Shown here piece by piece: positions 2 to 56,082 of a DNA stretch of 56,082 nucleotides. Within the stretch, counting starts at the first letter, position 1; the number at the start of each line of letters is the position of its first letter. The DNA is from a virus (taxonomy: Duplodnaviria; Caudoviricetes), in IMG/VR virus record IMGVR_UViG_3300011417_000011, positions 1 to 56,082 of that record. One strand, given 5' to 3'. A model generated the notes under the pieces. That model was not told the DNA's origin and ran no database searches. It worked only from the letters and a program-made list of their open reading frames with translations. The translations under genes and the position numbers were made by a program.

Positions 2-547
2 GTTGTCGTCAATTAGCGCGCTGTAAATGAACTGAACTTCCTTCGCCTGATTGATTGCGTCTAGGAGCGCAACATGCGGGTTTTCCATCTTAGGGACTTC
101 GATTGCTCTCATCCTTGCCATGTCCCGTAGCGTTCGGAGGCAGCGAGTATGGTTGTACTTCCAGGGTCGTTCATACCCAAGCTTAAAGTAAGCGTTCTCA
201 AGTATCGCGATGTCAAAGCTAGGAGCGCTGGCCCAGAGGAGGGCCTCTGGGCCGACTTGCGTTCGAAACATCTCAGAGAAGATGGAGAGCGCCTCTTCAA
301 TGGCCTGTGGTGACTTGAACAGGTTTACTCTGGCTTGGCCAGTCTGCCCCATCCACCATTCGATCGTGTCACCGTCCATTGTTAGACCAGAGCCGATAGC
401 CGAGTCAATTTTAATGTTAACCTGACCCTGGTCTCCCATCCTATCCGAGAACGGGTCAAAGACACACCAGCCCAGGGACGGAAAGACGGAGGTGGGCGCG
501 CGGCCTAGAGTTTCCAGGTCGATCATCACGTGGCTGAATTCAGGCAT
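2..547 (-). CDS. DEDDh 3'-5' exonuclease (Rv2179c/DUF5051-like), runs off the left edge
   Basis: Not in the ORF track. Manual translation gives MPEFSHVMIDLETLG...TIEWW...SFDIAILENAY...RCLRT...HVALLDA, with ExoI/II/III motifs. The ATG overlaps the upstream gene end. Confidence 0.85.
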   Translation of the reverse strand, partial: MPEFSHVMIDLETLGRAPTSVFPSLGWCVFDPFSDRMGDQGQVNIKIDSAIGSGLTMDGDTIEWWMGQTGQARVNLFKSPQAIEEALSIFSEMFRTQVGPEALLWASAPSFDIAILENAYFKLGYERPWKYNHTRCLRTLRDMARMRAIEVPKMENPHVALLDAINQAKEVQFIYSALIDDN

Positions 548-16257: not shown

Positions 16258-16447
16258 TCCTGAGAACCGTCCCTTCAGGAAGGGCGACGTAGTCTTCCTG
16301 GAGGCGGAGGTCAACGGAGAAGTTATCGAACTCCGTGCGACAGTGGACGAGGACGAGAAACCGATGGCCGAGATGATCCACGTAGCCCTTGGCTCGCGAA
16401 GGATCGACGTTCCGCTCGAGAACCTATGTCTCGTTGAGGAGGAATGA
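16241..16447 (+). CDS. Small SH3/KOW-like protein
   Basis: PFRKGDVVFL...ATV...IHV...VPLENL; overlaps the previous ORF. Confidence 0.5.
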   Translation: MLQETDPENRPFRKGDVVFLEAEVNGEVIELRATVDEDEKPMAEMIHVALGSRRIDVPLENLCLVEEE

Positions 16448-17090
16448 CGATGGTCTCCGGGGGCTCGGCGAGGCGAGCCTCGGGTGAGGTCGGTAAGGCC
16501 TTTACACCATCGAGCCTCCCCAACGCGGCTTGGGCCGAGAGTCTTCGCCCTTGGTCCTGGAGGGCTAAAATCCGCTCCGGCGACAGGCTCCGAGGGGGCG
16601 TGTACCGCACCTTAAGCGCGCGAAACGCCCTTCGGAGGTCGTTTCGCGCGCTCCGTCCGATGAACCGGCTTACCAACCTGACGTACACGTTTGCGAACGG
16701 CCAGGAGTGACCGCACACGTAGCCTGTGGCTACGTGTGCGAGCTCATGAAGGATGACAGGCAGCGTGATCATCAACGTCCCGAACTTAAGACCGTCACGA
16801 GAATCCGCGCTCGCGCCTTTCTTCTGTGACTTGATGAGCGTCACGCGGAACTGTCCTTCGTAAGGGGTGACGTTGAACTCACGAAGGATCGATTTCCAGG
16901 TCTTCGACCTACGAACGCGCCGAATGACCTTTTGGATTCCGCGTTCATCTGGGCGATCAAGAAGAACGTCGAAGGCCGAATCGAACGCGTTACGCTCGGC
17001 TCGGTACAGCCTCTTCCTTTGACTATCCCTTCTGGGCAGTCGGTAGACCGTGGTGACGTTCTTGACTGTCCTTCTCACAGCTACAGCCAT
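16323..17090 (-). CDS. HEXXH zinc metalloprotease-like protein (SprT/Rv0185-like)
   Basis: RDSQR.RLYRAE, VILHELAH....GH..PF; AAGGAG RBS. Confidence 0.75.
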   Translation of the reverse strand: MAVAVRRTVKNVTTVYRLPRRDSQRKRLYRAERNAFDSAFDVLLDRPDERGIQKVIRRVRRSKTWKSILREFNVTPYEGQFRVTLIKSQKKGASADSRDGLKFGTLMITLPVILHELAHVATGYVCGHSWPFANVYVRLVSRFIGRSARNDLRRAFRALKVRYTPPRSLSPERILALQDQGRRLSAQAALGRLDGVKALPTSPEARLAEPPETIVIPPQRDIGSRAERRSFASQGLRGSSRPSVSRPRPLSHGVR

Positions 17091-17131
17091 CTTCGCTCTC
17101 CTTGGGTTCTGTGGGTTCTAGCCAAAGGATG

Positions 17132-17160
17132 AGTTTACCGTCTCATCGCCCTTCGCGCTA
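17132..17160 (-). promoter_or_regulatory. Putative promoter TAGCGC-N17-TAAACT
   Basis: Matches 13565-13593; AT-rich tract upstream. Confidence 0.45.
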
Positions 17161-17199
17161 CATAAAAATTACGGCACTGGATGGTTTTGGTCTTTCCCG

Positions 17200-17482
17200 G
17201 GGCGCGGTCGGCCGCCCGTCCCTCTCCCCTGCACCTGCCCACCCGCACGCCAAGGACCGCGCTACGCGGCGCGATCGCGTGGTCGAGGTGCTGCATGCGC
17301 TGAAGGCCGCCGGCCCCACGCAGATCACCAAGGCGATTCAGAAGCGGTGGGGCGAGGACGCCGCCAACGTGGCGAACGTGAACGACATCCTCCGCACCGA
17401 CAAGATCGCCGAGCAGGTCGGCGATGGGACGTGGAAGTTGACCGCCATCATCGGCGACTGGAAGCCGTTCGCGGTGACCTGA
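17200..17482 (+). pseudogene. 5'-truncated winged-helix-like ORF (IS cargo)
   Basis: RRDRVVEVLHALK..GPTQITKAI...VNDILR.....EQVGDGTWKL; no credible start inside the element. Confidence 0.45.
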
Positions 17483-17567
17483 TCGACGCCGAGAAGGGAG
17501 AGCGCGATGCTCAGGAAAGTTGAGGCGCCGATGACTCGGCGGCGCCGTGACTAGTAAGTCAGAAGCC

Positions 17568-17612
17568 GGGGAGCGGCGGTAGCATCTTCGCGGGACGTTT
17601 CCGCCGCTCCCC
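17568..17612 (+). other. GC-rich stem-loop upstream of tRNA-Asn
   Basis: Perfect 12-bp stem GGGGAGCGGCGG / CCGCCGCTCCCC. Confidence 0.55.
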
Positions 17613-17626
17613 TCCGAGCTTTCAAC

Positions 17627-17699
17627 GCCCCCGTAGTTCAGTGGCATGAACAGCGGATTGTTAATCCGCCTGTCGCGGGTTCGAACCCCGCCGGGGGCG
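17627..17699 (+). tRNA. tRNA-Asn(GTT)
   Basis: Acceptor GCCCCCG/CGGGGGC, D arm GTTC/GAAC, anticodon arm GCGGA-TTGTTAA-TCCGC, T arm GCGGG-TTCGAAC-CCCGC, G73; followed by CCT rather than CCA. Confidence 0.92.
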
Positions 17700-17752
17700 C
17701 CTAAAGCGTCGTCTATTTTGACGTAGTGGGTACACACTGGAGAAGCCCCCTC

Positions 17753-18090
17753 TTAGGAGAGAAGCTCCAGGATCTCCCATCTCCGGTGCTCGATACCAGC
17801 ACGTTGAGCTGGTGTCTCCCCCTTCAACGTGATGTGCGGGCGGCAGTAATTGTGGTGGGCGTAATGCAGCGCCATTGCCGCTCGTAGGGCGTCCGCGCTC
17901 TTGGAGAAGTTGAGCGTGAGTCTGGCGAACTGGGACGATCCCATGCGCAGGGACAGATTCCAGCGCGAAGCAGCAACTTCGTCACCGACTCGCGGTCCAC
18001 GTCGCACAGGCGCGCCGTCGAGCGCATGCTGTTGCCCTCGACCAAGGCGGAGAGGATCAACGCCTGCTTTTCCTGCTTCAGAACGTTCAC
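17753..18090 (-). pseudogene. Internally deleted IS1-family transposase
   Basis: N-terminal HTH (LVEGNSMRSTARLCDVDRESV..LL) joined out of frame to the C-terminus (NLSLRM...RLT..FSK...HNYCRPH.TL..TPA..AG...W); DDE core missing. Confidence 0.8.
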
Positions 18091-18192
18091 GATCTGTTCC
18101 CTTCGTCGCGCCAAGGTGGCGCACCGCGACAGCCTACTTATGCGTGGTTCAACGAGGACAACCTTCCCCGGCAAAACCAGCCACTATCAAAA

Positions 18193-18468
18193 TTACAGCT
18201 TCACTTTCACTTCCCCCTCAAGCTTTTCATTCATCCGGCTAACCGCGTTTTCGAGCTCTTGAAGTCTACTTACCTTACGGGTGTTGAGCTCGATCTGCCT
18301 CTGAATGTCGTAGATCTTTTTGAGCATCCGAATAAGAGCCCTATCCTTACGTGTGGACTCTTCCATCCTTCGCATTATCGCTGGAACGAGTCTTATCATC
18401 AGGATGACAACTGCCGTTGCAAGACCGATTACACCGGCAGGAGGGATAGGTATTTCTTCGCTTAGCAT
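18193..18468 (-). CDS. Holin-like single-TM protein
   Basis: N-terminal TM followed by coiled coil; last gene of the tail operon. Confidence 0.45.
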   Translation of the reverse strand: MLSEEIPIPPAGVIGLATAVVILMIRLVPAIMRRMEESTRKDRALIRMLKKIYDIQRQIELNTRKVSRLQELENAVSRMNEKLEGEVKVKL

Positions 18469-21398
18469 TATGACTTATAGAGTAACGCAAAACCATCCTG
18501 CCCCGTACTAGGAGCGTCCATCGAAATGAACCGCTCTTCCCCGACAGTAGCGTCATTATGCTTAATGACGACCGTGTCTCCGATTACAACTCCTGCGAGA
18601 TTTCCTGTCGTCTGCCCAGCACCGACCAGCGTCGTGAAGGAGCCACCGTTCTTCGAGACCTGGACAATCGCGCCGCCGGAAAGGGCGCTGAACAAAGTGA
18701 AAGAATACGTTCCAGCGACCGTTGCCGTATAAATATTCGAGGAAACCCCGTCATCAAGTGCACCGAATACGAACTGGCCAGTCAAAGCAGTAGTGACGTC
18801 ACAGATCCACTTCGTCTGATTAAACTGGAAATAGGTTACGCTCTTGAACGTATGCTTCGCCTCGATCTTTATTCCGATCTGGGCCGGGATCACTCCGTTA
18901 GTAAACCTAAGAACATGGTCTCGCAGGAGCGTCGTCGTTTCCGATGAAGATTCTGCGAGCGTAAAGAGTAGCGTGTCAACACCAAGCGGATCAGCGTACA
19001 CGCTCACGATGTACTTCGTGCTATTAACAGACGGGAAGTCAGGATAGGTGAAGACAGCGTCGATCGTCAGTACGTCAACTTCGTTACCGCCTCGGAAGTC
19101 ACGACGAATGAACAAGAGTGCGACGCCAAGTCCATCGCCTGCCCCGGTTCCTTCAAGTGAGGAGACCACACTTCCCTCGACGCCGTTTATTGAAATGGCG
19201 CCGGGAGAAAGTGGCCTCCTCGACCGATCATTCATCGAAACCCTAATCGGTGTCACATCGCCAGGATCGGCAGTTTCTGTCTTGTTGTAGGGCCGGAGAT
19301 AGAAGTCATAATCAGCTCCCGCCTTCAGGTTGATACCGTTAAGACGTCCGCCACAGAGCGTGATTTCATCCCTGCCGATTCCATTAACGAAGAAGACCTG
19401 CGTTCCAGCCGGATGAACACGCGGCTGAGCCGTGTCCATGATCCCACGATACAGTCCTTTTATGATGACGTCATTACCAGAGCCTGCTTCAATAGTGTCA
19501 AATAGGAGGAATTCATCCTCGATCATAAGCATATGATACAGCTTATTGCCAATGTCTCTTGGATCCGCTGGCTGCCCAGCATTAGAATCAATGATCGTCT
19601 GTTTGGCGAAAGCTGAAACAGTTGTGACTGTGATCGTGCCCCCAATCGCGGGGCCTTGAACAAGATTGTCCTTCAACGGTGCATTGAGAGCGAAAATCCC
19701 GATATTACCATCATTGTATAAGTCAGTAAATCCAACATCTGCGATGTCATCGATTGTTTCAAGATATCCGATAGCGGACGCAATTCGAACCGTTCCAAAC
19801 CACACATGGTCTACTGGGCCATAGATCGGATTCCAGTTTGTATCCCGGATATCAAGAGCGTATGGTGCCTCTATCGCAAAGGAGAAGGCAAATTCCTGTA
19901 GCCCAGAGGTCGGGGAGACCCAAAGAGTGGGGGGCGGGGCTGCGCCGGAGGAAGGGTAAGTCGCGGTAAGGTCGTCGATCGCTTCGATCAGGATCTCTCC
20001 CTTGTCAATACGAGAATAGTCAATTCGAGAAACGCGCATCGCAAACTTATTGATGCCGTGCTCAGTGTTCGTGTAGACAAATGCATCACCAAGCTTGAGC
20101 GAGTATACGTCGCGCGTGCACACGAGCGTCGTGGAAGTTCTCGGTACAGAGAGATTTCTGAGATCCCTCCACACTAAAGAATTCGCAAGATCAGCATTCT
20201 TCACGCCAGGATATTTGACGCTCGCACGAGAATTCTTCCCGCTAGTGACCGTCAGATTCCCCTGCATCTGGGCGTTGGCCATATCCTGAGCCCAGGCGAC
20301 GACCTCCTTATAGCTTTGCTCGCGGTCATTGAAGGAGAGCGTAACGAGATTCTTCGTGTCCGCCCAGGTCTGACGGAAGAAGCGATCGACCTTCGTGATG
20401 TTCTTGCTGGCCGAAAGCTCCATAATGTCATCGACGTCGTAGTCCGCCCGAAGAAGCTTACAAACCCAGAGCCCCGAGGTATGGTCGATGAAGATAACGC
20501 CACCGATCTGGCGCTCGATCTCCTTAAGAATGTCGTCGTGCGATGTGATCGTATCGAGCAGGAAGGAGAAACCGTTGCCTTCCGTCGCAAGTGTTTCGGC
20601 AGCAGCTGTAAAACTCGAGACGTCGATCATCGACGAAGGCCACTTCATCCCCCAGTCATCGTCGGTAATGATCTCGTGAGCAACGTTCATCGGGTTGCAA
20701 TCATTACCGTCATTCAACTTAGCGACATCATCCGGCAGGCCAAGACCGTTAGGAATTCTCCGAACTACGACCGACGGGAATTTAAGAAACGTACTGTTAC
20801 CAAGATAAAAGTCTTTCAATACGATCCCAGCATAACCCTTATAGGCGGAGGTCTTGTCCGTCCCAACGAGTGTCTGCTGATACTGGGCAAGATAGGGATT
20901 GATCTCCTGGTCCTGGCCACCGTAGAGGATATCGATCTCGCCGTTGATTCCGCCAGAGCCGATATTGTTACCGCCGAACAAGTTCAAGAATCGCGAGACC
21001 GTGATCGTACTTGTTGGCCCAGAGGGGGGATCGTCGATGTCCTTATCCCAGACCTCAACCTCACCCCACGATATCCCAACGAGTTCATCGAATTTATGGC
21101 AGAGTCCAAGGTGAATTCCAAGGAAGTACTGGAATCCAATGGTCACATACTCAGTATTAAAGAGACTGTACCTGATCTTCTTTTCGATCGGAAACTGAAT
21201 TAGGTTCCCGTACCACATGACGTTCCCACCGTTAATCTTCACAGTCCCCCAAGCAATCGGGACTGCCCGGGAGGATGAAGTCGTTGGGAAAGAGAAGTCG
21301 CCCATTCCTGCTGGACGAGCATTCTCAGTCTTCGGCTTTGGAGCAAAAAGCTGAGACAGAAGGAACAGGACAACAATTATCAGGACTTGGGTAAGCAT
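18468..21398 (-). CDS. Tail tip / central fibre protein (Phage-tail_3, J-like)
   Basis: FSFPT....RAVPIAWGTV, YFLGIHLGLC, NPMN..HEI.TD..WG; follows the BR0599-like gene. Confidence 0.85.
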   Translation of the reverse strand: MLTQVLIIVVLFLLSQLFAPKPKTENARPAGMGDFSFPTTSSSRAVPIAWGTVKINGGNVMWYGNLIQFPIEKKIRYSLFNTEYVTIGFQYFLGIHLGLCHKFDELVGISWGEVEVWDKDIDDPPSGPTSTITVSRFLNLFGGNNIGSGGINGEIDILYGGQDQEINPYLAQYQQTLVGTDKTSAYKGYAGIVLKDFYLGNSTFLKFPSVVVRRIPNGLGLPDDVAKLNDGNDCNPMNVAHEIITDDDWGMKWPSSMIDVSSFTAAAETLATEGNGFSFLLDTITSHDDILKEIERQIGGVIFIDHTSGLWVCKLLRADYDVDDIMELSASKNITKVDRFFRQTWADTKNLVTLSFNDREQSYKEVVAWAQDMANAQMQGNLTVTSGKNSRASVKYPGVKNADLANSLVWRDLRNLSVPRTSTTLVCTRDVYSLKLGDAFVYTNTEHGINKFAMRVSRIDYSRIDKGEILIEAIDDLTATYPSSGAAPPPTLWVSPTSGLQEFAFSFAIEAPYALDIRDTNWNPIYGPVDHVWFGTVRIASAIGYLETIDDIADVGFTDLYNDGNIGIFALNAPLKDNLVQGPAIGGTITVTTVSAFAKQTIIDSNAGQPADPRDIGNKLYHMLMIEDEFLLFDTIEAGSGNDVIIKGLYRGIMDTAQPRVHPAGTQVFFVNGIGRDEITLCGGRLNGINLKAGADYDFYLRPYNKTETADPGDVTPIRVSMNDRSRRPLSPGAISINGVEGSVVSSLEGTGAGDGLGVALLFIRRDFRGGNEVDVLTIDAVFTYPDFPSVNSTKYIVSVYADPLGVDTLLFTLAESSSETTTLLRDHVLRFTNGVIPAQIGIKIEAKHTFKSVTYFQFNQTKWICDVTTALTGQFVFGALDDGVSSNIYTATVAGTYSFTLFSALSGGAIVQVSKNGGSFTTLVGAGQTTGNLAGVVIGDTVVIKHNDATVGEERFISMDAPSTGQDGFALLYKS

Positions 21399-22237: not shown

Positions 22238-25089
22238 CCGTCATCCTCAACTGCGAGGATCGGGACCGTAGCCCGAGCTCTACCAATTCCACGATGCTGG
22301 ATTTTGACCTCGTCAGAGTCAAAACGTACGAGATTGATCCATTCCACTAAGACGATCTGACTGATTGTCTTAGTGGAAGGCCACGTAGCATCGAGAGTTA
22401 GAAGTTCTTCAGTCTCGCTCAAAACCTCAGACGCCGTGATCTTACGAATAAGGCTAGTCTCATCTGAGAAAGTGATCTTGAAGATATTTCGACCTTCCTT
22501 GCCATTTGCATACTGCGTATAGTTATTATTCCTAACGGTAATTGTATCGTCGCCGTTCGTCAAATCCTGAGTAGCCTTCAAGTCAACAGCAATCTGAGGG
22601 CAATAGAAGGAGATCAGTTTCCCCTTCAGAGCTAGGATGAGATTTCGGAAATCTCGGAGCTCTGCGCGATTCCGGGTTAAGAACCCAAAATCGCGCAGGT
22701 CCTTATTTCGATCCCAGGAAGCGAACTGCTGACGGACTCCTGAGAGGCTGTCATAGCCTTCGACTTCTTGAATGAAAGCCTCCGCCTTCGTTGATCCATT
22801 CATGAAGTTATTCTGATCGAGTATCAGCCTACCGTTATAGGTACTGAAACCAATCAGAGAACCATCTGAAGCTCCAGTATCGTTATCGACAGATAGACAT
22901 TGGATGACATACGAAGCAACACCGACAGGGTTCCTACCGTTCCTTGGAGCCGACGTAATATTAACAAACCTGATTGGCATAACTATGTCGCCAATCGCAT
23001 AGGAATTAAGGGTTACCGACGTCACGACGATGGAATTGCTCGAAACAGACTCAATCTTAGCGACGTCGTAGTAGGAATCTGACTTACGGATCATCAAATA
23101 CCCACCCACACGAAGATCAACTCCAACCGTCGTGCTCACAGGAATCGTAACAGAGTCTCCAACCGTTACAAGAGCCCCGTTAATGGAGACTGACTCATGC
23201 CAAAGTGGGAGGGCGATAACCTCTGACTGTCTACCAAACAGGAGGTTATTGATCTCTCGTCGAGGATCCCCGTCGATATCGAAGAGATAAGGAACTTCAA
23301 AGTACTGACGAGGGTTAACCCGATACGAGATCCTCTGTTCCTTCCCACGGAGAATCCTCAGAACGCTTGTTCCAAACTGAAGATTCTCAGTAATATTACC
23401 GCTTGGCTTCCACGGAATAATCGGGACTCTAAGCCCAAGAATCTCGGCAAATACCTGATTACCGACAGAGAAGACGAACCCGATCTGGTCGTCAAACTTA
23501 AGAGGCCCGTCCTCGGAGGTTCTAATAGAAACTCCAAGGAGCGACGAATATGGAAGAAGTTTATACGGGAGTGTCGGAAGATCCTCGACAGTCACTCCCG
23601 GATCAAGAGGATTATTAACCTCCGTCAATTCCGTAGACTGATTGAATGCATTGAAAATCTCGATCGTCTGTTGCTGTGGAGTAATAAATCGTTCGAAGTT
23701 AATCGGCGTCCTAGGCAGGATGTGGATTCGATTGAACCAGTTAGCACCAATCGTAAAGTCAACAAGGACACAAGGACGGTCGATCGGCCCAGAGCCACCA
23801 GGCGGCGAGACAAGACCGGGTGCCCAGGCACCACCAAAGCCAATTGGAAAGAGGATCGGTCGCGATTTCCTCTTAGGCATCGGAAGGCCGATTCGCCCCT
23901 TCCTTCCTCTGGGCAGCGGGCCAGGAATGAGCTTCTTCGGCATGAAAAAGGCTTTACGGTCGGTTACGAGTGCAATTCCAAAGCCGTCGCGAGTGACTTC
24001 TGGCTCTTCAACGCGCTCAGAAGAAGCAATCCCAGTTGGTTGGATGAAGCCTGCCGTCGCAAGGTCACCGCCGACGATTGTATAGGCACCTGTCTCAGCG
24101 TTGAGAACTCTATTCCATAGCAGGGACGTTCCCGCCCCCGCGAGCGTGAAGGCACCCGTTGCTGCGCTGAGTAGACGGTTCCATAGCAGGGACGTGCCTG
24201 CTCCTGCTATGGCAAAGGCTCCGGCTGCAGCAGAGAGAACTCTATTCCATAGCAGGGACGTTCCCGCCCCTGCTATGGAATAGGCTCCACTTCCGGCAGA
24301 CAGGACTCGCTTCCACAGGAGGTTCGTTCCCGTGGAAGCGATGGAGAAGGCCCCGGTGCCGGCAACAAGAGTGTAATGCCGAATTTCACGAAGAACGTAG
24401 AAAACGGTCGCGCCAGCTGGATTATTCGTTGCGCTACCGCTTGCGGTCATCGTAAACGTAATCGTTCCGGTAGAAGCTCCAGCTGTTACAAAGGCATCAG
24501 CGACCACGGTCCCAACGTCGTCACCGTTTGTAACAACGTTATCAACGCGCTCATTAACTGTTCCAAACGTACAGCCTGAGCATGACATCGCCTCCGCGCT
24601 ATATGTATAAAGGTCAGTATTAATTCCTGAGCAGCAAACGATAAGGTCATCAACCAGGATATTCGGATCCGTGGCTGACGTTGCAGACCAGGAGGCTGTG
24701 CCGCCAGTATTCTGAGACGCGCTTCTACAGTGAGGAGTATCCCACGTACTCGTTGCATCAATCGAGTATTGAAGAATAATCCCCATCGCCGAGTTGCCGA
24801 TCGGGATAGAGACAGACTGTGTCCCTGTCTCGGTTCCGTCCGAGATCTTATAGTATACCGAGCAATAGACCTGCCCAGTGTCAGCGCCGCTGGACCCTGA
24901 CCCGCCCGATTTTTGGGCGTTCGTGATCAAAGTCCAGCCAGAGGGGGTTGTCGGTGCGTTTGTTGGGTACTTATTCGTCACTACGAGGAGAAGTATATTC
25001 CCTGAAGTGACTACAGGAAACGACGGCGTGATCGTGGTGGTCCCGCCGGATCCTGTACCTTTGTTAACAAACGCGATCGACGTAGACAT
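22234..25089 (-). CDS. Large tail protein: N-terminal beta domain, 22-aa repeats, distal-tail-like C-terminal half
   Basis: C-half has WFNRIHILP, E.L.F.T.V.....GKEQR...R.NPR, L..LKG....FY.P, VRFDSD. Confidence 0.75.
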   Translation of the reverse strand: MSTSIAFVNKGTGSGGTTTITPSFPVVTSGNILLLVVTNKYPTNAPTTPSGWTLITNAQKSGGSGSSGADTGQVYCSVYYKISDGTETGTQSVSIPIGNSAMGIILQYSIDATSTWDTPHCRSASQNTGGTASWSATSATDPNILVDDLIVCCSGINTDLYTYSAEAMSCSGCTFGTVNERVDNVVTNGDDVGTVVADAFVTAGASTGTITFTMTASGSATNNPAGATVFYVLREIRHYTLVAGTGAFSIASTGTNLLWKRVLSAGSGAYSIAGAGTSLLWNRVLSAAAGAFAIAGAGTSLLWNRLLSAATGAFTLAGAGTSLLWNRVLNAETGAYTIVGGDLATAGFIQPTGIASSERVEEPEVTRDGFGIALVTDRKAFFMPKKLIPGPLPRGRKGRIGLPMPKRKSRPILFPIGFGGAWAPGLVSPPGGSGPIDRPCVLVDFTIGANWFNRIHILPRTPINFERFITPQQQTIEIFNAFNQSTELTEVNNPLDPGVTVEDLPTLPYKLLPYSSLLGVSIRTSEDGPLKFDDQIGFVFSVGNQVFAEILGLRVPIIPWKPSGNITENLQFGTSVLRILRGKEQRISYRVNPRQYFEVPYLFDIDGDPRREINNLLFGRQSEVIALPLWHESVSINGALVTVGDSVTIPVSTTVGVDLRVGGYLMIRKSDSYYDVAKIESVSSNSIVVTSVTLNSYAIGDIVMPIRFVNITSAPRNGRNPVGVASYVIQCLSVDNDTGASDGSLIGFSTYNGRLILDQNNFMNGSTKAEAFIQEVEGYDSLSGVRQQFASWDRNKDLRDFGFLTRNRAELRDFRNLILALKGKLISFYCPQIAVDLKATQDLTNGDDTITVRNNNYTQYANGKEGRNIFKITFSDETSLIRKITASEVLSETEELLTLDATWPSTKTISQIVLVEWINLVRFDSDEVKIQHRGIGRARATVPILAVEDDG
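24064..24375 (-). repeat. 66-bp (22-aa) coding tandem repeat, ~4.5 copies
   Basis: TTCCA(T/C)AG recurs at 24113, 24179, 24245, 24311; LLWNRVLSAxxGAFxIAGAGTS. Confidence 0.9.
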
Positions 25090-54274: not shown

Positions 54275-54296
54275 TCTCTCATCTCCATTCTAATGA

Positions 54297-54371
54297 TCTA
54301 GCCGACAGGATTTGAACCTGCGACCTCCTGGTTCCAGGCCAGGCGCTCTAGTCAAGCTGAGCTACGACTAG
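54297..54371 (-). tRNA. tRNA-Pro(TGG), atypical
   Basis: Acceptor CTAGTCG/CGGCTAG, D stem GCTC/GAGC, anticodon arm CCTGG-CCTGGAA-CCAGG, T arm GCAGG-TTCAAAT-CCTGT, A73; has C33, A37, no D-loop GG, and ends TCA. Confidence 0.75.
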
Positions 54372-54389
54372 ATCTTTCGTTCAGCCGGC

Positions 54390-54828: not shown

Positions 54829-55683
54829 TTAGGACTTCGAAACGATTCGCGACTCATCGAAACCGCAGAGCGCGCGGTGCGCCTCTGCGCATGTCTTCGT
54901 ATTCGGTGGCACCTCGTTGTGATAGACGCGGCCGGTGGAACCGTCCGTCCATACCACAAAACGTCTCCCTTCGTCATCCTCTTGCAGCGCACGCGGGGCA
55001 GACCCGACGATAGCGCCTTCCACGTCGGCGTCGATCAGCTTGGCGCCGATGTCCTCGAGATAGCGCCCCTCGCCGTAAATCTCGCGCATCACCCGACGAA
55101 CCTCGGCGTTCTCCTCTGCCTTGATCTTCTTCAAGGTGATTTGGTCGTGGTGGAGGATAACCCAGTCTGGAACCAGGGTGCCGTGATACGCGAATAGAGA
55201 GAACCCGTCTGGGTACTCGCACGCCGGTCCATCCTCGCAGTGTAGGTTGCCTTGGTCGTCCAGCTTGAGCATCGAGGTCCGCTCGCAAGCAAACGCCTCT
55301 TGATCGTAGAACCATACCCATCCGCATGTTTGTGCAAGGCGGATCAGCGCGTCAAGCTCTTTCACTTCCTCTGTGAGTCCGACGACCTGCCCCATGAAGT
55401 CGTAGAACGACAGCCACGAAGCGTCATGTTGCCCGTACGCAGACGAAGACCAAGACGCCTCCTTGTCGATCTTTCGGACAGCAGTAAGCGCCGCGAGGGG
55501 TGATTGGTGCCAAGAGATAACCTTGGGCGGTGGGAGGTTGTCTGTGGCGTAGGCGTCGCGGATTGCAGCCTCGGCTAGCGTACGATTCGCCGGATCACAG
55601 CAAAGGCCAATCTGGATCCACTTTTGGAAAAACTCCTCCTCACGCGCCATCTGCTCTTCCGTGAGGAATTCAATCCTGTTCAT
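54829..55683 (-). CDS. DUF6745-like protein
   Basis: I..LT.EQ, SPLAA, YGQHDA.WL.FY, CGW.W, LHCEDGPA.EYPDGF...A.HG, I..E.NAEVRR, DGSTGR.Y; AGGAGG RBS. Confidence 0.78.
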   Translation of the reverse strand: MNRIEFLTEEQMAREEEFFQKWIQIGLCCDPANRTLAEAAIRDAYATDNLPPPKVISWHQSPLAALTAVRKIDKEASWSSSAYGQHDASWLSFYDFMGQVVGLTEEVKELDALIRLAQTCGWVWFYDQEAFACERTSMLKLDDQGNLHCEDGPACEYPDGFSLFAYHGTLVPDWVILHHDQITLKKIKAEENAEVRRVMREIYGEGRYLEDIGAKLIDADVEGAIVGSAPRALQEDDEGRRFVVWTDGSTGRVYHNEVPPNTKTCAEAHRALCGFDESRIVSKS

Positions 55684-55994
55684 CGCAGCCTCCTTTTTCG
55701 TGCGTTTGTCCACTGGAGCTCCTCCACGACGCGATCCCTGACACGATCCCAGACACGATTCCGGACGCGAGCCCAGACACAATCCCGGACACGATCCCAG
55801 ACGCGATCCCCGACACGATCCAGGACACGATTCCGGACGCGATCCCCGACACGATCCCGGACGCGATCCCAGACACGATCCCAGACACGATCCCAGACAT
55901 GATCCTCGACGTGATCCTCGACGTGATCCTCGACACGAGCCCGGACACGATCCCCGACACGATCCCAGACACGATCCCAGACGCGAGTGCTCAC
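55680..55994 (-). CDS. Tetrapeptide-repeat protein (21 x V-x-D-R)
   Basis: GTG start; stop overlaps the DUF6745-like ATG; synonymous third-position variation supports this frame. Confidence 0.65.
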   Translation of the reverse strand: MSTRVWDRVWDRVGDRVRARVEDHVEDHVEDHVWDRVWDRVWDRVRDRVGDRVRNRVLDRVGDRVWDRVRDCVWARVRNRVWDRVRDRVVEELQWTNARKRRLR

Positions 55995-56082
55995 TGGATT
56001 CTCTACCCGACACGATCCAGGACACGATCCGCGACACGATCCCAGACCCGATTCCGGACGCGAGCCCCGACACGATCCCGGA
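55727..56082 (-). repeat. 12-bp tandem repeats (consensus GTC TGG GAT CGT) in two blocks
   Basis: Directly visible; interrupted at ~55985-56005; continues off the window edge. Confidence 0.92.
56003..56082 (-). CDS. Second tetrapeptide-repeat ORF (3' end only)
   Basis: ...RDRVGARVRNRVWDRVADRVLDRVG-TAG. Confidence 0.5.
   Translation of the reverse strand, partial: RDRVGARVRNRVWDRVADRVLDRVG

Follow-up and report, generated by a model that had tools for sequence, protein, structure and literature searches.

A tRNA-Asn gene within a probable, internally deleted IS1-family transporter insertion sequence in an uncultured siphophage

The window analysed here is the whole 56,082-base-pair (bp) stretch of the IMG/VR virus record IMGVR_UViG_3300011417_000011 (estimated completeness 83%), and the element under study is a 1016-bp block at positions 17173–18188 that holds a transfer RNA (tRNA) gene for asparagine beside two fragments of a transposase gene. 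We read this block as a single, internally deleted and non-autonomous insertion sequence (IS) of the IS1 family, i.e., a passenger-carrying transporter IS, which transposed into the phage with the tRNA aboard or moved in trans after the deletion, and we put the probability of this reading at about 0.7. Because twelve related elements show exact 8-bp target duplications and four of them hold an internal tRNA, the tRNA most likely arrived as part of the transposon.

Ends, target duplication and transposase remnants

The element lies between two copies of the 8-bp sequence AAAATTAC, the left one at 17165–17172, found by direct reading and repeat finding, and the right one at 18189–18196, which contains the TAA stop of a phage open reading frame (ORF) of 91 amino acids (aa). 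An earlier note on this DNA (the original prediction) had proposed a 1016-bp element with imperfect inverted repeats and flanking direct repeats, and both the extent and the AAAATTAC copies on either side are borne out. The end far from the transposase start, E1 (GGCACTGGATGGTTTTGGTCTTTCCCGGGG; 17173–17202, plus strand), pairs with E3 (GATAGTGGCTGGTTTTGCCGGGGAAGG...; 18159–18188, minus strand) on the transposase-start side. Aligned with the reverse-complemented right end, GATAGTGGCTGGTTTTG-------CCGGGG, E1 matches at 13 of 17 positions and, after a gap of 7 nucleotides (nt), at 6 of 6. E1 begins with GGCACTG, in keeping with the IS1 end formula GGnnnTG, and E3 begins with GATAGTG, one departure from it; compared with the end of the closest relatives, GGTAGTGGGTCATTTTG, E1 has 5 mismatches in 17 and E3 has 4. 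The guanine-plus-cytosine (GC) content inside the element is 0.585–0.725 versus 0.45–0.55 in the flanks (about 53% for the phage), and the 17–18 kb bin has the highest GC content of the whole window.

Two transposase fragments lie on the minus strand. The N-terminal one, 72 codons with a helix-turn-helix (HTH) at 17959–18174, with a likely true start GTG at 18090, ends at LLLRAG, and the C-terminal one, 70 codons plus stop at 17753–17965, starts at RWNLSLR; they are in different frames, with the deletion junction at about 17960–17965. The N-terminal fragment shares 73% identity with the N-terminal part of P0001 (277 aa). The C-terminal fragment has 2917 homologues at E ≤ 0.001, and one protein, P0002 (94 aa), is 96% identical to it, retains TSHVE ahead of RWNLSLR and points to another copy of the element on a 26,085-bp Joint Genome Institute (JGI) contig.

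In an alignment with full-length relatives the N-terminal fragment stops at column 72 and the C-terminal fragment starts at column 261. Columns 73–260 are missing, in agreement with the earlier claim that the transposase has lost its catalytic aspartate-aspartate-glutamate (DDE) core: the roughly 160 missing residues held DE(x)W, STD and VE(R), i.e., D, D and E are all lost. With the catalytic triad gone from the alignment, the element is to be regarded as unable to move by itself, and movement would therefore need a related transposase in trans. Searches by tblastn with the full-length relatives found no transposase-like sequence elsewhere in the window. A deletion between short GCGCTGG repeats is suggested because the junction letters GCGCTGG fit both sides, the upstream side according to P0002 being HVERWNLSLR.

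While the ends, the duplication and the family can be read from the DNA, the chemistry of transposition is taken over from the IS1 family by analogy. A DDE transposase of this family would have joined E1 and E3 into the spacer between the genes for the 91-aa protein and for a 255-aa protein, and filling-in of the staggered cut would have produced the duplication of AAAATTAC. The tRNA-Asn(GUU), a hairpin and a small DNA-binding-like ORF would have been carried opposite to the transposase strand, in the stretch that leads from the transposase stop to the far end. All three catalytic residues would have been lost with about 160 codons in a frame-shifting deletion, probably between the GCGCTGG repeats, and the intact tRNA gene would most likely add an Asn-accepting tRNA during infection. 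Of the proposed transposon route followed by immobilization, the carriage of the tRNA aboard a transposon is supported; the order of the two events is not, as an already deleted copy could have moved in trans instead.

Related elements and their passengers

Relatives were collected from metagenome and genome scans and from hidden Markov model searches of 206 Acidobacteriota, 301 Chloroflexota and 301 Planctomycetota genomes; the conclusions do not depend on G632, G778 or G677, three genomes flagged as unpublished. For five full-length relatives (273–301 aa) the best NCBIfam match is NF033558, 'IS1 family transposase', with 57–72 bits and E values of 2e-15 to 8e-20, all five scoring below the equivalog cutoff of 100 bits, and one of them, P0007, passes the Pfam family DDE_Tnp_IS1 (PF03400) with 28.4 versus a threshold of 24.1. 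Judged by these profile scores the transposase is a distant branch of the IS1 family, for which an 8–9-bp target duplication and ends of the form GGnnnTG are tabulated (PMC10425158, Table 8). The nearest transposases of the genome scan are 39–44% identical among the matches listed.

Around homologous transposase genes in bacterial genomes and metagenomes, 14 inverted-repeat pairs with GGTAGTG... ends were found, and exact 8-bp duplications flank all of them except L158 and L172. The resulting twelve complete relatives (L005, L006, L052, L142, L145, L147, L148, L152, L157, L164, L180 and L182) measure 1053–3190 bp, and because every one carries DNA beyond the transposase gene, the branch, as represented by these loci, consists of transporter IS. 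Passengers identified in them are GNAT, P63C, a proteasome-like protein and NYN; a thirteenth element, L008, which is cut at one end and stands outside the twelve, has a SocA/Panacea passenger. L005 is a deletion derivative that retains just the transposase C-terminus, and in both L005 and L157 a passenger follows the transposase gene in convergent orientation, the same layout as in the window. The tRNA-carrying, IS1-derived transposon of the original prediction thus finds support in IS1 as the best family match, in twelve relatives with 8-bp duplications and in the four of these that hold a tRNA. A single 6.4-Mb chromosome of an Anaerolineales metagenome-assembled genome (MAG), OZ252150.1, contains over 60 copies of a short element resembling IS1 (L053–L121), which dominated the matches of the genome scan.

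ARAGORN was run for tRNAs on 41 metagenome loci, not counting L004, which is the phage itself, on 25 of the 77 loci of the genome scan and, for the three phyla searched, on 9 loci, 29 of 30 loci and 12 loci, respectively. A tRNA lies between the ends in L148, L157, L164 and L180, i.e., in 4 of the 12 complete relatives, with Rfam scores of 44–56 bits; at ordinary bacterial tRNA density about 0.3 tRNAs would be expected in 28.7 kb. The anticodon is UGC in L148, whereas L157 (1859–1945) and L164 (1153–1236) combine a Pro(AGG) and an Ala(UGC) anticodon, respectively, with a long variable arm of class II type. The L180 tRNA shares the acceptor strand GCCCCCG and G73 with the tRNA-Asn of the window, and its anticodon GCU is one letter from GUU, which hints at a transposon-borne tRNA lineage with a drifting anticodon. 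That tRNA (468–541, minus strand, in an IS1-type element at 15–2352) has its Ser(GCU) anticodon on a class I body with no long arm.

In L157 and L164 the tRNA sits between a small coiled-coil ORF and the transposase gene, within elements that have exact 8-bp duplications, and ORF, tRNA and transposase follow in this order on one strand. A small ORF adjoins the in-element tRNA in all four relatives. BLASTP comparisons among the ORFs of L157, L164 and L180 and the small ORF of the window gave no significant similarity; the L164 ORF has no database homologues, and its C-terminal half is predicted with a local distance difference test score (pLDDT) below 50. A shared module of winged helix plus tRNA was considered and is treated as a lead, not a finding, in view of the missing similarity among these ORFs. 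In this family, carriage of a tRNA may be a recurring feature of the element rather than the outcome of a chance capture from a host.

Elsewhere, a tRNA lies 83 nt upstream of the transposase gene in L190, where the ends of the element were not found, and just outside the IS end in L008 and L179. No tRNA-like RNA was found inside the elements of L005, L006, L008, L009, L031 and L052 at E ≤ 1. At L008:1-2612 an IS1-type remnant is situated between a transfer-messenger RNA (tmRNA) gene with ssb and a cluster of tRNAs for Pro, Arg and His, which begins 118 nt outside the end. The suggested search for full-length tRNA-bearing copies thus yielded four complete relatives that bear a tRNA, but no close full-length copy, and named no host.

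The tRNA passenger in its phage

The tRNA-Asn gene of the window (17627–17699, plus strand; 17627–17701 according to ARAGORN) has the anticodon GUU and a class I body. It was detected by ARAGORN and by Rfam RF00005, the latter with 67 bits against a gathering score of 29 (E = 5e-14), full length and with all four stems paired, which confirms the earlier call of a tRNA-Asn(GTT). It has a G1-C72 pair and the discriminator G73, and the gene continues with CC and then T, CCA being incompletely encoded. The discriminator G73 and the GUU anticodon fit the identity rules of asparaginyl-tRNA synthetase; bacterial tRNA-Asn usually has U1-A72, from which the G1-C72 pair departs. The tRNA-Asn is identical in contigs of four metagenome runs and in L002, one of two other contigs of the same phage (L002 and L004) that have the insert at the same site.

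A strong hairpin at 17568–17612 (plus strand), also noted earlier and likewise borne out, lies 14 nt upstream of the tRNA. Its 19-nt arms are 84% complementary, it is present in both the minimum free energy and the centroid folds of 17483–17760 with a z-score of −3.15, and a search for an Rfam family gave no credible one. Between the small ORF and the hairpin, after 17523, L002, L004 and one of the four runs have a 17-bp tandem duplication (unit GGCGCCGATGACTCGGC) that is absent in the window.

The small ORF, in its 117-aa form at 17129–17482 (plus strand), has its ATG start in the phage flank and continues through the left duplication copy and E1; the portion within the element, 17174–17482, gives a weak winged-helix-like signal. 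It had been described as a winged-HTH fragment, and to this extent there are leads: the Atlas Rok winged-helix domain and HARE-HTH at 0.88–0.90, and an AlphaFold2 (AF2) model with pLDDT 58.6 and a helix-helix-helix-strand-strand pattern. The best Foldseek match of the model is the Rok DNA-binding domain, at a non-significant E value of 0.76. Pfam and NCBIfam searches gave nothing, the sole database match is its own cluster P0158 (117 aa), and the 301 Chloroflexota genomes gave just weak matches to the low-complexity N-terminal part.

The element is fixed in every sampled genome of the phage. In each of the 24 listed groundwater and sediment runs, a fraction of at least 0.84 of the words sampled from 16300–19050 is present; contigs span both junctions in three of the four runs examined and the left junction in the fourth, and the ORF of the deleted transposase is recorded on 33, 27, 2, 1, 1 and 1 contigs. 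The empty site that the original prediction suggested looking for was not found in related phages or the 24 runs. Scans of viral contigs with the tail protein and the 255-aa and 91-aa ORFs gave nothing beyond the same 10-kb contig and three unrelated coiled-coil matches, and the empty-site joint was not seen in the contigs of the four runs, although contigs drop rare variants and a search for the joined junction was not made. A search for several copies at different sites gave one site in one phage lineage among the matches listed.

Four clustered C>T changes (plus strand) at 17862, 17875, 17876 and 17931 are private to the window, and three of them are non-synonymous in the dead transposase; L002, L004 and the contigs of the four runs read C at these positions. 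A changed transposase remnant next to an unchanged tRNA is the pattern to be expected if one gene decays while its neighbour is retained, although the numbers are small.

The exact 73-nt tRNA is absent from species-representative genomes and, among viral contigs, confined to the same phage. Its best identity is 76–82% in 401 sampled Pseudomonadota genomes and 73–77% in 5 MAGs, which names no host. Compared with cultured phages, similarity to the element is limited to the level of the tRNA-Asn.

The window is classed by homology as an uncultured siphophage without close cultured kin because its 976-aa tail protein is just 28–30% identical to its counterparts in siphophages of Xanthomonas, Xylella, Pseudomonas and Sphingomonas. 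The element lies in the spacer between the 91-aa and the 255-aa genes. The 91-aa ORF (18193–18468, minus strand), directly after the tail protein gene, has one membrane helix and a coiled coil; the original prediction had placed the stop of a holin-like gene in the right repeat copy, and the TAA is indeed there, while the label 'holin-like' has no family above threshold behind it. The 255-aa ORF (16323–17090, minus strand) resembles HEXXH-type metallohydrolases and starts 74 nt beyond the left duplication copy; it matches TIGR04338 at E = 6e-5, below the cutoff, and its homologues in Caulobacter and Brevundimonas phages are 30–32% identical.

A second tRNA, Pro(UGG), at 54295–54372 on the minus strand, lies amid ordinary phage ORFs of the same strand, with no IS ends and no transposase remnant in its vicinity, and borders a GC-rich block (0.59–0.62) that reaches the contig end. 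Short tandem repeats in 55600–56082 produce repetitive ORFs that overlap one another and encode GSC/GIVS-type peptides; these occur on both strands and continue to where the record ends.

Competing explanations and known systems

Several observations weigh against a single tRNA-carrying IS. Its ends are diverged, agreeing with each other at 13 of 17 positions and differing from the nearest relatives at 4–5 of 17; there is no close full-length copy, the nearest complete transposases being 39–58% identical among the matches listed; and related phages and runs show no empty site, so that we infer the pre-insertion sequence. None of the four tRNA-bearing relatives places the tRNA downstream of the transposase as in the window: it is upstream on the same strand in L148, L157 and L164, and upstream on the opposite strand in L180. 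The tRNA of L004 has one deletion and one substitution. A promoter scan of 16900–18500 gave 0 sites, which leaves the putative −35 formerly placed against the left repeat copy unsupported, and expression and charging of the tRNA are predictions. Furthermore, an 8-bp repeat with IS1-like 7-mers inside both copies occurs somewhere in 52 of 200 shuffled windows (26%), and the repeat and ends alone are therefore weak evidence. This count would suit an origin with no transposition at all, in which a GC-rich block with a decayed IS was acquired by recombination and the repeat and the end similarity are chance, as is clearly the case for a second pair in the window, the 8-bp palindromic repeat CCGATCGG at 24797/27610, which also has IS1-like 7-mers inside both copies and was set aside as a look-alike within continuous tail-gene ORFs. 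Such an origin is highly improbable for the element itself, whose repeat copies abut exactly the two ends that bracket the sole transposase remnants in 56 kb and coincide with the GC step on both sides, and whose duplication has the length found in all 12 complete relatives. The case rests on this coincidence of repeat and ends with the sole transposase remnants of the window, on the GC step and on the relatives.

Also adverse to a single IS is an end-like sequence between the transposase stop and the tRNA, E2 (CGTAGTGGGT...; 17722–17749, plus strand), which suits a three-ended structure better. The original IS would then run from E2 (17722) to E3 (18188), and the 549-bp tRNA/ORF segment would be DNA from next to it, possibly the leading portion of another element of this family in opposite orientation, mobilized since the transposase paired E3 with the distant E1. 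Composite transposons, or 'transposable modules' mobilized by one IS, behave in this way. E2 matches 9 of the 10 letters of the terminal motif GGTAGTGGNT in the correct orientation, 31 nt past the stop, and the stop is 9–36 nt from the outer end in L142, L141/L144/L147, L164 and L180; a second element cut off after the tRNA, ordered as in L157/L164, would resemble 17173–17721, E1 resembles E3 over two blocks, and mobilization by an IS of the DNA next to it is among the classes described in PMC9330008 (section 5). However, the second block conserved in the ends of this family, (G/A)TTT(T)G, is missing from E2, and the whole window has 11 such 10-mer matches versus 6.9 expected, so that a match somewhere in the 580-bp passenger region is not rare. 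L005 and L157, moreover, have convergent passengers between stop and far end within single elements, and no transposase remnant follows the tRNA on the plus strand. We hold three ends to be unlikely, and E2 may be a relic inner end or a chance match. A different role for the tRNA, as a built-in working part of the transposon family that is paired with the small ORF for its own expression control or as a conflict system, and is left over without benefit in the phage, strikes us as rather unlikely. It would account for the small ORF beside the tRNA in 4 of the 12 relatives and for the odd bodies or anticodons in L157, L164 and L180, and a link of irregular tRNAs with transposable elements and with toxin-antitoxin loci has been published (PMC5389517); the tRNA-Asn of the window, on the other hand, is regular and, at 67 bits, scores higher in Rfam than any other of the set, AAC and AAU are common codons, which makes private decoding difficult to envisage, the small ORFs have no significant similarity to each other or to that of the window, and the tRNA is unchanged in the four runs and L002 with the transposase destroyed. 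We entertain tentatively, and with some doubt, the broader proposition that passenger-carrying IS1-family transposons are a general, undescribed tRNA vehicle used by phages, which here delivered a tRNA-Asn that was kept during transposase decay, with the tRNA and perhaps the ORF under selection.

How phages acquire tRNA genes is rarely visible, and in the single, internally deleted transporter IS that we favour the transposon vehicle would still be legible. It ties the phage to a poorly described IS1-family branch that often carries tRNA genes, some with anticodons unfit for their bodies; if the in-element tRNAs are active, transposons and phages would move decoding capacity between genomes. 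The element also serves as a marker for a phage lineage found widely in groundwater and sediment metagenomes, and a full-length copy of it would point to the host of the phage.

IS1 is an element of enterobacteria, and ISfinder also has single-ORF and passenger-carrying subgroups such as ISMhu11, for which a literature search found no paper. Compared with classical IS1, which has two ORFs and a programmed −1 frameshift, the relatives described here have a single long ORF of 273–301 aa with a longer C-terminal tail; they score below the equivalog cutoff (57–72 versus 100 bits) and carry passengers in 1.0–3.2 kb, and the phage copy has in addition lost the catalytic core. Mobile insertion cassettes and miniature inverted-repeat transposable elements (MITEs) are transposase-less derivatives moved in trans. 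The phage element resembles them in its lack of autonomy, its length of about 1 kb, its ends of the family's type, its 8-bp duplication and its small cargo, but differs in that one insertion site is known and 142 transposase codons are retained; because these codons remain, it would be a recent deletion derivative and not a streamlined cassette. What it has in common with the IS1 family are the homologous transposase and, of the traits tabulated in PMC10425158 (Table 8), the short terminal inverted repeats of the form GGnnnTG and the target duplication, here of 8 bp.

Transporter IS (tIS) are, in the sections devoted to them, insertion sequences that carry passenger genes (PMC9330008, section 5; PMC7986276, 'Passenger genes'). 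The likeness lies in genes unrelated to transposition, here the tRNA-Asn and the small ORF, which are situated between one pair of ends and would move as a unit; compared with the tIS of those sections, the element differs in having a tRNA gene as its passenger, a phage as its replicon and a gutted transposase. A tRNA gene physically tied to a transposable element recalls the irregular and allo-tRNA genes for which links with transposable elements and with toxin-antitoxin loci have been described (Mukai et al., Nucleic Acids Res 2017, PMC5389517); among the relatives, L157 and L164 have long-arm tRNAs whose anticodons do not match. The phage element, in contrast, has an ordinary class I tRNA-Asn, and the relevant passages of that paper describe no tRNAs in phages or enclosed by defined IS1-type ends.

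In literature searches, no publication came up that describes phages gaining tRNAs by way of a transposon or that treats allo-tRNA and transposase jointly, and we know of no tRNA-bearing IS1-type transposon in a phage. Phage genomes commonly carry tRNA genes, and the same phage also has its tRNA-Pro(UGG) in an ordinary phage context. The tRNA-Asn differs from phage tRNAs generally in that its probable acquisition vehicle is still visible in the IS ends, the duplication, the transposase remnant and the foreign GC content.

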